Of a DNA stretch of 64,000 nt, positions 55,736-58,170 are shown in pieces (the stretch's first letter is position 1; the number at the start of each line of letters is the position of its first letter). The notes under the pieces are model-generated. The model was given only the letters and a program-made list of their open reading frames with translations, had not been told where the DNA came from and ran no database searches. A program made the position numbers and the translations under genes. Origin of the DNA: Candidatus Moranbacteria bacterium GW2011_GWC2_40_12 (GTDB lineage: Bacteria; Patescibacteriota; Minisyncoccia; Moranbacterales; UBA11712); the NCBI GenBank assembly GCA_000995965.1, contig LBYD01000001.1, positions 76,923 to 140,922 of the forward strand. The letters run 5' to 3'.

Positions 55736-56011
55736 CTATTTTACTATTGCCAAAATGTCCTCGTTCTTGACCAAAAGATATTCAGCTTCCCCGATCTTGA
55801 TTTCATTTCCGGAATATTTCGAATAGATCACCTTTTGTCCGGCCTTCACTTTGATTTTTTTATCCATTCCGACGGCGATAACAACACCTTCCTGCGGCTT
55901 TTCTTCACTTGTGTCGGGAAGGACGATGCCGGAAGCGGTTTTCGAGTTTGATTTCGCGGGTTCAATCAGGACGTTCTCGCCTAGAGGTTCAATATTGGGT
56001 TTTTTTGCCAT
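55736..56011 (-). CDS. groES: Co-chaperonin GroES
   Basis: IEPLGENVLIEPAKSNSKTASGIVLPDTSEEKPQEGVVIAVG is canonical. Length is 91 aa. No groEL is adjacent. Confidence 0.85.
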   Translation of the reverse strand: MAKKPNIEPLGENVLIEPAKSNSKTASGIVLPDTSEEKPQEGVVIAVGMDKKIKVKAGQKVIYSKYSGNEIKIGEAEYLLVKNEDILAIVK

Positions 56012-56051
56012 GGCTTTGAAAAATTATGATTAGCTGTTTTGGAAAAATTAT

Positions 56052-56303
56052 TTAAACCATTCTTTTTTTCGTGAATTCTTCAATTTTCGCGTCGGGCTGG
56101 ATACCAACTGTTTTTTTTCTCTCAATAATGAATATATATATTATTTCAAGGATTCCGAGGGTGTTTAGGAGCAAAAGTGCTATAAACCAAATCATTTCGC
56201 CTTGTCTGGCCGATTTCCACAGTGCAATTCCTTTCCAGACAAGGGTCCAGATGATGAGCGGAATCAGAATCAAATAATTGTTGAGCAGCGATGTTAGATC
56301 CAC
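56052..56303 (-). CDS. Hypothetical small membrane protein (2 TM)
   Basis: ORF with two hydrophobic helices. Confidence 0.4.
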   Translation of the reverse strand: MDLTSLLNNYLILIPLIIWTLVWKGIALWKSARQGEMIWFIALLLLNTLGILEIIYIFIIERKKTVGIQPDAKIEEFTKKRMV

Positions 56304-56367
56304 AGAAAAAAATTAAACACGAGGGTTATATCTATTGCACCCCATTAGAGTACTTTTTGGATTCACT

Positions 56368-56625
56368 TTAGGCTTCTTTGACTTTAAAAACAGTGGCTCC
56401 TTCTTTTGTCGGACTTGGCACCTTGATCGCAATCTCTTCGCCCTTTTTTCCTTTGCTGACGGGCTCATGGTTGAGCTGGATCGAATCAGCTTTGAGCTCA
56501 AATTCATTGTCTCCTTTCACGAATTTGAGCGGATCCCCCGCCTTGACGACTTTCGACAGTTTCACGACAGCTACCATCGCCTTGTCAAAATAATGAACCA
56601 CTTTTCCGATTTCTTGATCGGCCAT
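56368..56625 (-). CDS. Hypothetical small protein (85 aa), beta-rich (EF-Tu domain-2-like?)
   Basis: ORF only. Sequence composition KVVHYFDKAMVAVVKLSK...GDPLKFVKG suggests a small beta-barrel. Function unknown. Confidence 0.4.
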   Translation of the reverse strand: MADQEIGKVVHYFDKAMVAVVKLSKVVKAGDPLKFVKGDNEFELKADSIQLNHEPVSKGKKGEEIAIKVPSPTKEGATVFKVKEA

Positions 56626-56681
56626 ATTTTTGTGGTTAACGTATTCCTAATACTAGCAAACTTTCATTTTTTTTTCAACCC

Positions 56682-56710
56682 TTGAAAAATTGGGCGAATT
56701 TCAGTAGAAT
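56682..56710 (+). promoter_or_regulatory. Sigma-70-like promoter TTGAAA-N17-TAGAAT driving the tRNA-Gln fragment, GIY-YIG gene and tRNA-Gln
   Basis: cTTGAAAaattgggcgaatttcagTAGAATatg. The predicted TSS is about 10 nt before the tRNA-like 5-prime end. Confidence 0.45.
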
Positions 56711-56726
56711 ATGAAGGTTGATATAT

Positions 56727-56772
56727 TCCGGGATCGTCTAATGGTAGGACGCCTGACTCTGGATCAGGTAAT
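56727..56772 (+). pseudogene. tRNA-Gln 5-prime half (46 nt identical to positions 1-46 of the downstream tRNA-Gln), followed by divergent GC-rich hairpins
   Basis: TCCGGGATCGTCTAATGGTAGGACGCCTGACTCTGGATCAGGTAAT is identical to 57104..57149. No matching 3-prime acceptor strand (TCCCGGA) follows. Confidence 0.6.
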
Positions 56773-56837
56773 TGGGGTTCGCCCGATCATCCGATCGGGC
56801 GGCCGGTCGTATGACCGGCCGAATCCCTCAAACATGA

Positions 56838-57098
56838 ATGCATTACATTTATATTCTTTCACTAGGAAATAATAGCTTGTATAAAGGCAGGACTGATAAT
56901 ATTAAAAGGAGAGTATCAGAGCATCAGGCCGGGAAAGTGGAAGCAACCAAATATAAACTTCCAGCCAGATTAATTCACTTTGAATGCTACGTTGTAAAGA
57001 GTGATTGTATACGGCGGGAGAAATATTTAAAAACTACTGAAGGCAGAAGATTTTTAAAACAACAGTTGAGAGATTTATTTAAAAAAATTGTTGGTTAA
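56838..57098 (+). CDS. GIY-YIG nuclease superfamily protein (YhbQ/UPF0213-like)
   Basis: HYIYILSLGNNSLYKGRTDNIKRRVSEHQAG contains the GIY, YIG, Arg and Glu core. The overall sequence is collinear with E. coli YhbQ ([30 protein letters not shown]...). Confidence 0.7.
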   Translation: MHYIYILSLGNNSLYKGRTDNIKRRVSEHQAGKVEATKYKLPARLIHFECYVVKSDCIRREKYLKTTEGRRFLKQQLRDLFKKIVG

Positions 57099-57103
57099 CA
57101 TAT

Positions 57104-57177
57104 TCCGGGATCGTCTAATGGTAGGACGCCTGACTCTGGATCAGGTAATCTTGGTTCGAATCCAAGTCCCGGAGCCA
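57104..57177 (+). tRNA. tRNA-Gln (anticodon CTG)
   Basis: Cloverleaf: acceptor TCCGGGA/TCCCGGA with U1-A72, discriminator G73 and encoded CCA. Anticodon arm is CCTGA-CTCTGGA-TCAGG. T arm is CTTGG-TTCGAAT-CCAAG. Confidence 0.75.
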
Positions 57178-57354
57178 CATTGTATGTTCAGCGTTTTCCA
57201 CTATGCCATTAAAGAGTGTTTAACCTCAAATAAAAGGTTATTGACTTGTAAAGAAAAATTCTGAAGTAAGAAACCCATCAGTTGGGTTTTTTTGGTTCGA
57301 AAATTTGGAATAAGTCCCAAGACTGTAGAACAATATTCTGGTATACTCATATAT

Positions 57355-58170
57355 ATGAAAAAAAACATTCTCATTGTCCTTGTTTTGGTTATTTTCATTG
57401 CTTTTGCATGGTGGCACTTCACTGCCACTGAAGACGAAAGAACTGGCTCGCAAAAAAACAATCAGCCAACGCTTTCCGACTATTCAACCGCGCCTGCCGA
57501 CAATGTCACTGCACCTGCAAAAAAAGTCAGGTGGAACTTTGATGGCGAAGAGTATGCTCCTTCCGGGACGCCCCGGGCATGCCCTGATCCGCTTGAGATC
57601 GAATCGCCCGTTGATGTTTCAAAAGCGTCTTCGATCCTGTATCCGGGCCAATACCGCGGTGATGATTTTAAGGCGCACGGCGGATTTAGGTTTGATGGGT
57701 ATCGGAGCGACGCCATAACCGTCACAGTGCCTCTGGATGCCCGGCTGCAAGACGCGAGCCGGTATATTGAGGATGGGCAGGTTCAATATTTATTTGATTT
57801 TATCCATGACTGCGGCATCATGTACCGATTTGATCATCTGGCAACCCTAACTCCGCGATTTGAGGCGTATGCCCGGCAATTGCCTGAAGCGAAAGTGAAT
57901 GATTCACGAACGACCCTGTTTCCCGATGATGTGTACGTCACGACGGGCGATGTCATCGCAACCAGCGTCAATCGGGAGGGTAATGTATTTGTCGATTTCG
58001 GCGTGTATGATCTGCGCCAAAAAAATGGCATAACCATTGATGAAAAAAATTCGTTGGCGAGACATGGCATCTGTTGGTTTGACCTGCTGCCCGCTTCAGA
58101 CGCGCAGAGAGTAAAATCATTACCTGCCAGCGATGAACGGTCAGGCGCGAAGAGTGAGTATTGCAGGTAA
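57355..58170 (+). CDS. Secreted/membrane-anchored hypothetical protein; GC-rich relative to surroundings
   Basis: Start at MKKNILIVLVLVIFIAFAWW (signal/TM). -10 tatact lies 7 nt upstream. Codon composition is visibly GC-richer (about 50%). Confidence 0.5.
   Translation: MKKNILIVLVLVIFIAFAWWHFTATEDERTGSQKNNQPTLSDYSTAPADNVTAPAKKVRWNFDGEEYAPSGTPRACPDPLEIESPVDVSKASSILYPGQYRGDDFKAHGGFRFDGYRSDAITVTVPLDARLQDASRYIEDGQVQYLFDFIHDCGIMYRFDHLATLTPRFEAYARQLPEAKVNDSRTTLFPDDVYVTTGDVIATSVNREGNVFVDFGVYDLRQKNGITIDEKNSLARHGICWFDLLPASDAQRVKSLPASDERSGAKSEYCR

Follow-up and report, generated by a model that had tools for sequence, protein, structure and literature searches.

Within the window (the whole 64-kb stretch of Moranbacterium DNA analyzed), a segment of 496 nt contains a promoter, a partial copy of tRNA-Gln(CTG) that is interrupted by two hairpins, a small GIY-YIG nuclease gene, and an intact tRNA-Gln(CTG) gene (Table 1). 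Because 10 independent contigs from different assemblies and samples carry this segment (56682-57177) in identical form, the arrangement is not an assembly artifact. The inserted segment measures 377 nt and includes the 86-aa ORF as its sole ORF; no tyrosine or serine recombinase gene was found in it. The ORF has no Shine-Dalgarno-like sequence on its 5' side, and its stop codon precedes the intact tRNA-Gln by 5 nt, as had been described from the sequence alone. The promoter previously noted here is also real; no second plus-strand promoter-like site is present in 56300-57500, such that both the ORF and the intact tRNA have only this site upstream. The same promoter precedes the single tRNA-Gln at the corresponding locus of a related Moranbacterium that lacks the insertion (L098), as well as the tRNA-Gln of another locus that is occupied (L103). 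It is the native tRNA-Gln promoter. At the other end, the terminator-like hairpin possibly marks the end of the transcription unit, judging from its sequence.

Table 1. Features of the tRNA-Gln locus in the 64-kb window.
Feature	Position	Strand	Basis or remark
Sigma-70-type promoter, TTGAAA-N17-TAGAAT	56682..56710	+	10/12 consensus matches
Partial tRNA-Gln(CTG) copy	56723..56781	+	Repeat comparison; 4-nt leader, tRNA positions 1-46, and T-arm start
Module X, 40-bp double hairpin	56782..56821	.	Between TTCG and AATCC of T loop
X hairpin 1, CCCGATC-atcc-GATCGGG	56782-56799		Loop ATCC; CG next
X hairpin 2, GCCGGTC-gtat-GACCGGC	56802-56819		Loop GTAT; CG next
Remainder of split T arm, AATCCC TC	56822..56829	+	3' T-loop part and T-stem 3' bases
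GIY-YIG nuclease ORF, 86 aa	56838..57098	+	Pfam GIY-YIG match
Spacer CATAT, 5 nt	57099..57103	+	Last 4 nt belong to the 50-nt repeat
Intact tRNA-Gln(CTG), CCA encoded	57104..57177	+	ARAGORN; Rfam 64.6 bits
Terminator-like hairpin AAACCCA-tcagt-TGGGTTT, then T run	57271..57293	+	Read off the sequence; not listed by a simple scan

For the first tRNA copy, the sequence-only reading reported 46 nt of identity with tRNA-Gln and a divergence straight into two strong GC hairpins. The identity of positions 1-46 is exact, but the repeat is really 50 nt long and includes the 4-nt leader (56723-56772 = 57100-57149). The divergence does not occur where it was placed, since the copy runs on into the T arm. 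Positions 56773-56781, which read TGGGGTTCG where the intact gene has CTTGGTTCG, correspond to the 5' strand of the T stem, in diverged form, followed by TTCG, the first four bases of the T loop; after the hairpins, the tRNA sequence resumes as AATCCC (56822-56827), and the T-stem 3' bases within 56822-56829 pair with GGGG at 56774-56777. The hairpins are an insertion inside the T loop, because TTCG stands before them and AATCC after them. They are present as described, but rather than a local oddity, they constitute a conserved 40-bp module (here termed X). The fold of X with the split T stem is a three-way junction of -42.3 kcal/mol (z = -7.1), and none of 200 shuffled sequences was equally stable (0/200). 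The X-bearing T arm is GGGG/CCCT, compared with CTTGG/CCAAG in the intact gene, yet it is complementary to itself; by its sequence, it looks as if this arm arrived together with the element.

The first copy stops at 56829 and has no acceptor 3' strand. It is not a tRNA. ARAGORN called the second copy as tRNA-Gln(CTG) and made no call for the first. The Rfam tRNA model does match the first copy at 56729-56794 (30.9 bits, compared to a threshold of 29 bits), but this match arises only when hairpin 1 is threaded as a false T stem and acceptor strand. The passing of this threshold by a dead tRNA copy is of practical consequence for public sequence data. The locus has no Rfam match to an intron or ribozyme, and a tRNA intron is also contradicted by the complete downstream tRNA and by the missing 3' acceptor strand of the first copy. 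Another proposal was that the 5' half-tRNA and hairpins serve as a tRNA-like leader, through which RNase P or RNase Z would process or stabilize the nuclease message. The Rfam score and the tRNA-like sequences on both sides of the ORF are consistent with such a role, but ARAGORN rejects the copy, the score depends on the false threading, and RNase P and RNase Z both require an acceptor 3' strand, which the copy lacks. Moreover, in related loci, the fragment keeps other parts of the tRNA or stands 3' of the ORF, and X has properties that belong to DNA. A leader function is very improbable.

The 86-aa protein matches the Pfam GIY-YIG domain (PF01541) over residues 1-70 with 45.9 bits (E = 6.9e-12; cut-off 22.6), in agreement with its original assignment. 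Among 16 homologs, Y3, Y5, Y15, G17, R25, and H29 are nearly invariant and E49 and E61 are invariant; the GIY-YIG family membership suggests which of these residues may be catalytic. The AlphaFold model (pLDDT 94.5) has the strand-strand-helix-strand-helix-helix order of the GIY-YIG fold, in which helices flank a three-stranded sheet, and its fold matches are, from the best, UPF0213 proteins (1zg2 and 1ywl), Slx1, and I-TevI. Profile comparisons against the PDB gave significant matches to the same two UPF0213 proteins (E = 1e-11 for 1zg2 and 5e-11 for 1ywl). With a single domain and significant similarity to BH0048/EF2693, the protein is UPF0213/YhbQ-like, as had been suggested. Its architecture is a bare catalytic domain with one C-terminal helix, and this REKYLKTTEGKRFLKQQ helix is the mark of the subfamily. 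The protein, 86 aa in all, lacks a DNA-binding module for a long specific target in the style of I-TevI or SegB. With UPF0213 and Slx1 as its nearest relatives, it is not the classic homing endonuclease of the I-TevI type that it had been taken for. By analogy with UPF0213 and Slx1, the nuclease is probably structure-specific. No family was assigned to the protein in PHROGs or NCBIfam, and no substrate assigned to the UPF0213/bacterial Slx1-like family was found in the literature searched. Low dN/dS values (0.06-0.14) in pairs of close homologs indicate that the ORF is under purifying selection.

Homologous ORFs (88 copies in 80 genome loci) were used for comparison. An intact tRNA on the same strand is located no more than 60 nt away from 67 of these 88 copies. 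Of the other 21, nine are close to the end of a contig, and several further copies belong to the interior of tandem arrays. One example of a tandem array is L014, with three 394-nt units. About 20 tRNA species adjoin these ORFs, and the hosts are mostly uncultured bacteria of the Patescibacteria, Lentisphaerota, Kiritimatiellia, Cloacimonadota, and other groups. Most loci have a partial second copy of the adjacent tRNA, which ends at a loop and is split by X at YCG^A, and no more than a few nucleotides ever separate X from the start or the end of the ORF. The tRNA parts kept in the fragment vary between loci. When X is upstream of the intact tRNA, its 5' flank is the full 5' part of the tRNA and its 3' flank matches for 4-8 nt only. 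When X is downstream, the rule is mirrored, with the ORF fused in frame to (G)GGTTCG-X and its TGA stop falling inside hairpin 2. The hairpin-bearing fragment is 3' rather than 5' of the ORF in 14 loci. The ORF of the element has no untranslated regions, and its own stop codon is often missing. In three loci (L017, L090, and L025), the ORF lies between two different intact tRNAs with no X nearby. As separate observations, contig breaks are frequent at such elements, and some database proteins have false N-terminal extensions that are apparent translations of the hairpins.

A passive history may be considered, in which an old tandem duplication of tRNA-Gln decayed while an unrelated small ORF and GC-rich repeats came to occupy the gap by chance. 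The first copy is indeed truncated, and tandem tRNA duplicates and pseudogenes occur in bacteria. However, about 80 genomes of several phyla share the three-part arrangement, which is found at about 20 tRNA species, and X was confined to the vicinity of the ORF in both the 64-kb window and the control DNA (114 kb). Furthermore, the 50-nt repeat is still exact even though the ORF shares only 59.5% identity with the orthologous copy in L103. Such a history is scarcely credible.

The related loci contain 57 distinct copies of X, whereas 0.2 would be expected by chance. Although pairing was not used as a selection criterion, 56 of the 57 copies pair well; all 14 pairs covary, and 98.6% of the cells are paired, almost only by Watson-Crick pairs (about 5/728 cells are G-U). 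One locus (L011) has X in both orientations. The insertion sites are the T loop in about 40 of the 57 copies, the anticodon loop (CTCG^AAA) in nine, and the D loop for single hairpins; CG (or TG) flanks the insert on both sides. Single hairpins are also scattered in the D and anticodon loops of dead tRNA copies, and hairpins nested in the loop of another hairpin were found in L044 and L131. The remainder of the 64-kb window and 114 kb of related control DNA yielded no further X copy; in these sequences, X is found only beside the ORF, and it was rejected as a dispersed REP-like repeat. The hammerhead or another known RNA motif or ribozyme, a candidate raised by the three-way junction, was rejected as well: there is neither an Rfam match nor a conserved unpaired core, and in Rfam 15, the hairpin region of the window and of five related loci matched the tRNA model alone. 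A bias toward G-U was not adopted as a test of RNA pairing, since G-T and A-C mismatches are equal in number (18 each) and G-U is rare. The strand symmetry, the near-exclusive use of Watson-Crick pairs, and the occurrence in both orientations indicate that X acts at the DNA level and is not an RNA leader.

These properties also bear on the possibility that the locus is a host-serving system at the RNA level, with a protein that acts on tRNA or tRNA metabolism and a hairpin-bearing pseudo-tRNA that is a cis-acting stabilizer, regulator, or decoy. Such a system would be in line with the strong purifying selection on the ORF, the retention at the same locus in the window and L103, and the position of X near the ORF ends: once tRNA processing has freed the message, a very stable hairpin there could shield it. 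In addition, a fusion of a bacterial Slx1-like GIY-YIG domain with a TrmH-like tRNA methyltransferase has been described (PMC1564403). Nevertheless, a strand-symmetric module with almost only Watson-Crick pairs and both orientations does not suit a role as RNA, nor does the variable placement of X, which is 5' of the ORF in some loci and 3' in others. The scattered and in part nested single hairpins in dead copies are likewise unexpected for such a system, and the presence/absence polymorphism, the hopping between tRNA species, and the tandem arrays are marks of mobile DNA. We consider a host-serving RNA system improbable.

The evidence for mobility comes from loci with the same gene context and from the distribution among tRNA species. 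The L098 locus is an empty site with the same promoter and one intact tRNA-Gln, whereas the window and L103 carry the element in the same syntenic position. The ORFs of the window and L103 share 59.5% identity, compared to 62% for a neighboring protein; because this divergence at a shared locus is roughly host-like, long vertical retention and a role useful to the host are possible. The closest relatives of the window ORF (74% and 69% identity) adjoin tRNA-Ser(GCT) rather than tRNA-Gln. Only 18 of 64 nearest-neighbor ORFs share an anticodon (6 expected), which is incompatible with strict co-inheritance of the ORF and tRNA. The earlier idea of a tRNA gene duplicated or disrupted by a small nuclease-encoding element is supported in outline by the empty site and by the ORFs with partial local copies at about 20 tRNA species. 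Carriage by phages was rejected, as viral contigs gave three distant protein relatives and one chance motif match, none of them beside a tRNA.

Mobility could result from classical sequence-specific homing only. In this scenario, an enzyme similar to SegB or I-TevI cuts the empty tRNA allele, and double-strand-break repair between homologous alleles copies a block of X, the ORF, and the replacement tRNA part. The partial duplication would then be carried by the element, as in organellar homing genes that bring a replacement gene end. The empty and occupied alleles at shared synteny would be expected, and so would, through co-conversion of the donor flank, the difference between the X-bearing and the resident T arms seen in the window, L063, and L079. 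The association between ORF lineage and anticodon is above chance (18 compared to 6), and phage T4 SegB provides a precedent for a GIY-YIG homing endonuclease in a tRNA cluster (PMC2330249). However, a domain for binding a long DNA target is missing from the 86-aa protein, and its fold is nearer to UPF0213 and Slx1 than to I-TevI. Moreover, ORFs that share 70-80% identity adjoin different tRNA species and are in each case accompanied by a duplicate of the tRNA found there, a pattern that allele-to-allele copying cannot produce. X splits the loop of one copy, and the intact tRNA beside the ORF keeps an intact loop. Because the intact tRNA and the putative target loop are regenerated, the insertion would not shield the locus from its own nuclease, unlike in classical homing. 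Homing as the only process is an unlikely explanation.

On balance, the locus appears to be one copy of a mobile and selfish mini-element that combines a GIY-YIG ORF with hairpins, resides in tRNA genes, and is expressed from the tRNA promoter. Because relatives in about 80 other uncultured bacteria share the arrangement at many tRNA genes, we lean toward this reading of the sequences, with some reserve in view of the regenerated loop, the roughly host-like divergence between the window and L103, and the few loci without X near the ORF. The comparisons establish the anatomy of the locus, the rules common to the family, the presence/absence polymorphism, the DNA-level nature of X, and the purifying selection on the ORF; from them, we infer the activity and specificity of the nuclease, the co-transcription and processing of its message, and the mode of tRNA-segment duplication. 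The element would consist of a "naked" ORF of about 250 bp and the 40-bp double hairpin X. X would enter YCG^A in a loop of the tRNA gene (here the T loop, GGTTCG^AATCC), and insertion would be coupled to duplication of the tRNA segment between the target loop and the nearer tRNA end, which here would be the leader and positions 1-57. The X-bearing copy would be dead and the intact tRNA would be kept next to the ORF. The promoter-less ORF would be transcribed by read-through from the tRNA promoter, and RNase P, at the 5' end of the downstream tRNA, would release the ORF message. The nuclease would recognize hairpin loops with TCGRAT, a description that applies to the T arm as well as to the X hairpins, and its cuts would fall at CG, staggered by 2 nt. 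A duplication model that fits all junction rules is a DNA cloverleaf cut at the loop and at the base of the acceptor stem, after which the cassette would bridge two sister copies.

Several other routes to this duplication were considered and set aside. Double-strand-break repair from a donor at another tRNA would yield chimeric tRNAs and no intact local tRNA. An intact local tRNA at a new tRNA species would also be missing after Campbell integration of a circle that contains only the T arm and X, or after cut-and-paste movement of a cassette with a 2-bp duplication. Homing from allele to allele cannot explain the duplication of a local tRNA segment at each new tRNA species. A bolder and tentative version of the mini-element reading, which we regard as rather unlikely, holds that a new class of DNA transposons, one that acts on folded DNA, has the 86-aa protein as its recombinase. 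The protein would recognize the TCGRAT loops in a tRNA gene extruded as a DNA cloverleaf, cut at CG with the 2-nt stagger, and paste in 20-bp hairpin modules together with a promoter-less and stop-less ORF; cuts of the same kind at the base of the acceptor stem would give rise to the tRNA-bounded duplications.

Several known systems share parts of this arrangement. The gene for phage T4 SegB, a free-standing homing endonuclease of the GIY-YIG type, lies in a cluster of tRNA genes (PMC2330249); it resembles the present element as a selfish GIY-YIG gene among tRNA genes, with its inheritance tied to the tRNA region. The CG on either side of X would agree with the 2-nt 3' overhangs that such GIY-YIG enzymes produce. 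However, SegB is a full-length, phage-borne enzyme with DNA-binding regions and has no hairpin module, tRNA-loop insertion, or partial tRNA duplication, whereas the present family is almost absent from viral contigs. In organelles, free-standing GIY-YIG and LAGLIDADG genes bring along a duplicated piece of the gene that they enter, as in atp6 of Allomyces. These genes are similar in that an ORF sits in an essential gene and the duplicated segment keeps a functional copy next to a dead remnant, but they target mitochondrial protein-coding genes and encode enzymes with DNA-binding domains. The present element, by comparison, targets a tRNA loop, its duplication extends to the tRNA end, and its junction is marked by a conserved double hairpin.

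Among hairpin elements, double-hairpin elements or GC-rich palindromic clusters were reportedly described in fungal and algal mitochondrial DNA by Paquin and coworkers in 2000. Like X, these are short GC-rich hairpin pairs in AT-rich genomes, mobile, and sometimes located beside endonuclease ORFs, but they are dispersed in many copies per genome. To our knowledge, they have no dedicated enzyme. X, in contrast, is present once or a few times per element, beside the ORF only, with a fixed architecture and a YCG^A target in tRNA loops. The REP/REPIN and RAYT systems are similar in their short palindromic hairpins (often inverted pairs), covariation, and one dedicated nuclease gene. However, RAYT is an HUH/Y1 enzyme rather than a GIY-YIG enzyme, and REPs have tens to hundreds of dispersed copies; compared with REP sequences and MITEs, the 64-kb window has one X and the 114 kb of related DNA outside the element has none.

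UPF0213 proteins (YhbQ, BH0048, and EF2693) and Slx1, the closest relatives in sequence and fold, are likewise stand-alone catalytic domains of about 90 aa. Hairpin or cruciform substrates would be in keeping with Slx1, which cleaves branched and stem-loop DNA. No linkage to tRNA genes, hairpin module, or mobility was reported for UPF0213 or Slx1 in the literature searched. Within the same host group, rRNA genes of CPR bacteria contain insertions, some with GIY-YIG ORFs, that are not introns and are mostly located at the tops or bases of stem-loops (PMC11270868). These share with the present element the GIY-YIG ORFs inside structural RNA genes, but they concern rRNA, and neither a duplication of a gene segment nor a hairpin module was described for them (PMC11270868). 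Integrative elements and prophages at tRNA genes have the same landing site and also keep the gene intact by partial duplication. However, they rely on tyrosine or serine integrases, extend over kilobases, and usually duplicate the 3' part, whereas the present element, about 0.4 kb long, has no integrase and duplicates the 5' part in some loci and the 3' part in others. In the literature searched, no account was found of bacterial tRNA genes accompanied by a small GIY-YIG gene and hairpins.

Large integrative elements classically insert at tRNA genes, which are among the most conserved cellular sequences. Structures of UPF0213/bacterial Slx1-like proteins have been available since 2005, and the present locus suggests hairpin loops containing TCGRAT as a candidate substrate; a nuclease that is truly specific to loop structure could serve as an experimental tool. 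If the protein were a recombinase, DNA transposition would for the first time be attributable to a lone GIY-YIG domain, tRNA genes would be both landing pads and expression and processing machinery, and the 20-bp hairpin modules would rank among the smallest mobile DNA units known. The locus has the look of selfish DNA of a kind not described so far, able to colonize tRNA genes without destroying them. If true, a parasite of about 0.4 kb would exploit tRNA genes in a new way across phyla of mostly uncultured bacteria, borrowing the tRNA promoter, and probably tRNA processing, while the partial tRNA duplication would spare the host.

The first tRNA-Gln(CTG) copy in the window carries a 40-bp double-hairpin module (X) within its T loop. 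A sequence-only reading had described this copy as a 5' half followed by hairpins. The 46 identical nucleotides are exact, but the copy goes on into the T arm on both sides of the hairpins, which therefore represent a T-loop insertion between TTCG and AATCC. Apart from this split, only the acceptor 3' strand is missing. When both copies were checked with ARAGORN, as that reading had proposed, the first received no call and the second is intact. Although the truncated, hairpin-bearing copy is not a tRNA, the Rfam tRNA model scores 30.9 bits on it (56729-56794; 29-bit gathering threshold), reached only with hairpin 1 mis-threaded, and likewise passes threshold at two related loci (L014 and L024); automated annotation may label copies of this type tRNAs or pseudogenes of tRNAs. 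The hairpins and the split T stem form a three-way junction (-42.3 kcal/mol, z = -7.1). The host is a Candidatus Moranbacteria bacterium (CPR/Patescibacteria), and the 496-nt arrangement recurs unchanged in ten contigs that come from separate assemblies and samples.

Features of the tRNA-Gln(CTG) locus in the window
Feature	Coordinates	Strand	Remarks
Sigma-70-type promoter	56682-56710	+	TTGAAA-N17-TAGAAT
50-nt repeat, first copy	56723-56772	+	4 nt leader and tRNA-Gln(CTG) positions 1-46; identical to 57100-57149
T-stem 5' strand and T-loop bases 1-4	56773-56781	+	TGGGGTTCG
X	56782-56821		Two perfect GC-rich hairpins, CG after each
Remainder of T loop and T-stem 3' strand	56822-56827	+	AATCCC
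Spacer			10 nt, between AATCCC and the ORF
GIY-YIG ORF	56838-57098	+	86 aa; Pfam GIY-YIG E = 6.9e-12
Intact tRNA-Gln(CTG)	57104-57177	+	5 nt after the ORF
Terminator-like hairpin and T run	57271-57293		About 95 nt past tRNA-Gln; absent from the list of a simple scan

The tRNA promoter is the only plus-strand promoter-like site within 56300-57500, suggesting that the ORF is transcribed from it; the message would be cut off by RNase P at the downstream tRNA. Promoter-like sites at 56650-56710 are divergent and back to back, and their -35 hexamers make the palindrome TTTTCAA-CCC-TTGAAAA (56672-56688). The minus-strand member of the pair, a TG-extended TTGAAA-N17-TAGTAT, would drive the minus-strand genes at 55736-56625 that encode an 85-aa protein of unassigned family, a DUF5652 small membrane protein, and GroES (Cpn10, 55736-56011). 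The next gene downstream of groES in the window is not groEL; it encodes a rhodanese on the opposite strand. A similar divergent promoter pair is visible in the related locus L098.

The Pfam match bears out the GIY-YIG assignment made from the sequence. Close pairs of ORF homologs have dN/dS of 0.06-0.14, indicating that the ORF is kept functional. The AlphaFold model (pLDDT 94.5) shows a GIY-YIG core and one long basic C-terminal helix, and the best PDB matches are, in order, the UPF0213 proteins BH0048 and EF2693, Slx1, and the I-TevI catalytic domain. The 86-aa protein has no DNA-binding domain; such a lone catalytic core would more likely read DNA structure than long sequence. The database versions of three homologs (P0003, P0008, and P0011) have N-terminal extensions (e.g., ..VHPVIRLGGESND..) that resemble a translated upstream hairpin module (compare RPIIRSGGRSYD, translated from the X of the window) and are probably wrongly called starts.

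One genome per species was scanned with a protein pattern that contained nothing about tRNAs, and 356 relatives were found, in hosts of several phyla. Among the best 80 loci, an intact tRNA on the same strand lies within 60 nt of 67 of the 88 ORF copies (51 downstream, 14 upstream, and 2 on both sides). Of the remaining 21, nine lie close to the end of a contig, several occupy inner positions in tandem arrays, and most others have a tRNA 115-200 nt away. The adjoining tRNAs include Ser (four anticodons), Gln, Arg, Lys, Tyr, Leu, Ala, Asn, Thr, Pro, Ile, and Gly, and most loci have a partial second copy of the adjoining tRNA at the opposite end of the ORF. Many contigs in public databases stop at such elements, with six (L023, L029, L050, L055, L077, and L078) ending 5-70 nt past the ORF, as expected if short-read assemblies break at repeated tRNA segments; both copy numbers and tandem arrays are thus probably under-counted.

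The junctions follow two patterns, and in every case the duplication is bounded by the loop site and by one end of the tRNA. Where X lies upstream of the intact tRNA, as in the window, its 5' side is the full tRNA 5' part, from 0-12 nt before position 1. The tRNA match on its 3' side is merely 4-8 nt, followed by an unrelated spacer of 5-40 nt and the ORF, which ends between 18 nt before and 15 nt inside the intact tRNA. Where X lies downstream, the ORF starts 0-54 nt past the tRNA 3' end and continues in frame into (G)GGTTCG-X, with a TGA within hairpin 2 as its stop; the 3' side of X is the full tRNA 3' part plus a trailer of 0-8 nt. No conserved flanks accompany the ORF, and it often lacks its own stop codon; the coding sequence itself seems to end without one. 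At nine loci (L016, L038, L041, L052, L068, L072, L076, L081, and L083) it ends inside the tRNA, reaching 10-15 nt into it and using a TAG of the D-arm region (e.g., GCATAGTGG and CCCATAGTTC). L014 (2887-4140) has three complete 394-nt units of partial tRNA, X, and ORF before one intact tRNA-Gln, and L011 (3356-3540) has ORF-less 76-nt units (GGTTCG, X, tRNA 3' part, and 13-nt trailer) after an intact tRNA-Ser.

X has the consensus [CCnnnnC-ATNC-GnnnnGG]-CG-[CCnnnnC-GNAT-GnnnnGG]-CG, with 57 distinct copies; 0.2 would be expected by chance from shuffled sequence. With the loops and CGs as sole anchors, both stems still pair at five or more of seven positions in 56 of the 57. All 14 stem pairs covary, with 98.6% of cells paired and 133 double changes (27.5 in shuffles). 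G-U occurs in only about 5 of 728 cells, and G-T mismatches are as frequent as A-C mismatches. The two hairpin loops are reverse complements, such that X reads alike on either strand, and two copies in L011 are exact reverse complements of one another. This Watson-Crick-type covariation, strand symmetry, occurrence in both orientations, and mismatch equality indicate that X behaves as a DNA element rather than a strand-specific RNA motif. It is accordingly unlikely that X serves the host at the RNA level by stabilizing a message, although a reported bacterial Slx1-like domain fused to a tRNA methyltransferase provides a hint of such a role (PMC1564403). Very improbable is the alternative in the sequence-only reading, a tRNA-like leader processed by RNase P or RNase Z. 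No Rfam family matches X. It is restricted to the surroundings of the ORF, with one copy in the 64-kb window and none outside ORF-bearing loci in 114 kb of related control DNA.

About 40 of the 57 copies are flanked by the T-loop sequence GGTTCG^A(A/G/T)TCC and nine by CTCG^AAAAC, the anticodon loop of tRNA-Ser(CGA). The others follow CG (TG once); Arg, Lys, and Gln tRNAs host most of these, in the anticodon loop or the variable region. Lone hairpins of this kind occur in D loops (after position 13) and anticodon loops of dead tRNA copies. In L044 (about 570-630) and L131 (about 55-105) one hairpin is nested within the loop of another, so hairpin loops themselves seem to serve as targets. A CG flanks every module on either side, the trace expected of a 2-bp target duplication or of a cut staggered by 2 nt. 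Hairpin 2 has the T-loop sequence TCGAAT at its core, and the hairpins thus look like T-arm mimics.

The search for an empty site in relatives, suggested from the sequence, succeeded: in L098, with 79% identity in the neighboring 85-aa protein, the promoter is shared and a single intact tRNA-Gln follows it, with no ORF. In the more distant L103 (62% for the neighboring protein) this site is occupied, and the two tRNA copies there both have the L103 sequence. The closest relatives of the window ORF (74 and 69% identity) are at tRNA-Ser(GCT), both with X in the T loop of a partial tRNA-Ser copy. Nearest-neighbor ORFs share an anticodon in 18 of 64 cases (6 expected); ORF lineage and anticodon are associated, with frequent switches. 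The X-bearing T arm of the window (GGGG/CCCT, compared to CTTGG/CCAAG in the intact gene) still self-pairs, as if it had arrived with the element, and the same holds for L063 and L079. At L028 (2880-3340), the upstream partial and downstream intact tRNA-Gln(CTG) are of different sequence types, suggesting either transfer of the block from one allele to another or replacement of the resident gene.

The locus is most likely a selfish mini-element resident in tRNA genes. Its anatomy, junction and insertion rules, presence/absence polymorphism, DNA-level X, and selection on the ORF are established by these comparisons. The nuclease would cut hairpin loops at CG, leaving a 2-nt stagger. In one model compatible with every junction rule, the tRNA gene would fold into a DNA cloverleaf and be cut at two points, a loop and the acceptor-stem base; the cassette would then bridge two sister copies. 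Allele-to-allele homing explains spread among genomes with the same tRNA gene but accounts neither for arrival at a new tRNA species nor for duplication of the local tRNA segment there. Classical sequence-specific homing is, on the whole, unlikely, and passive decay of an old duplication very improbable.

The systems nearest in concept are T4 SegB, organellar endonuclease genes accompanied by a partial duplicate of a gene, double-hairpin elements of mitochondria, REP/RAYT systems, CPR rRNA-gene insertions that carry GIY-YIG ORFs (PMC11270868), and integrase-type elements at tRNA genes. Each has one or two features in common with the element, and none has the whole combination. A full-text literature search found no description of this combination, although much subscription literature lies outside such a search and an earlier description is possible. 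The element would belong to a known kind, endonuclease-based selfish DNA.
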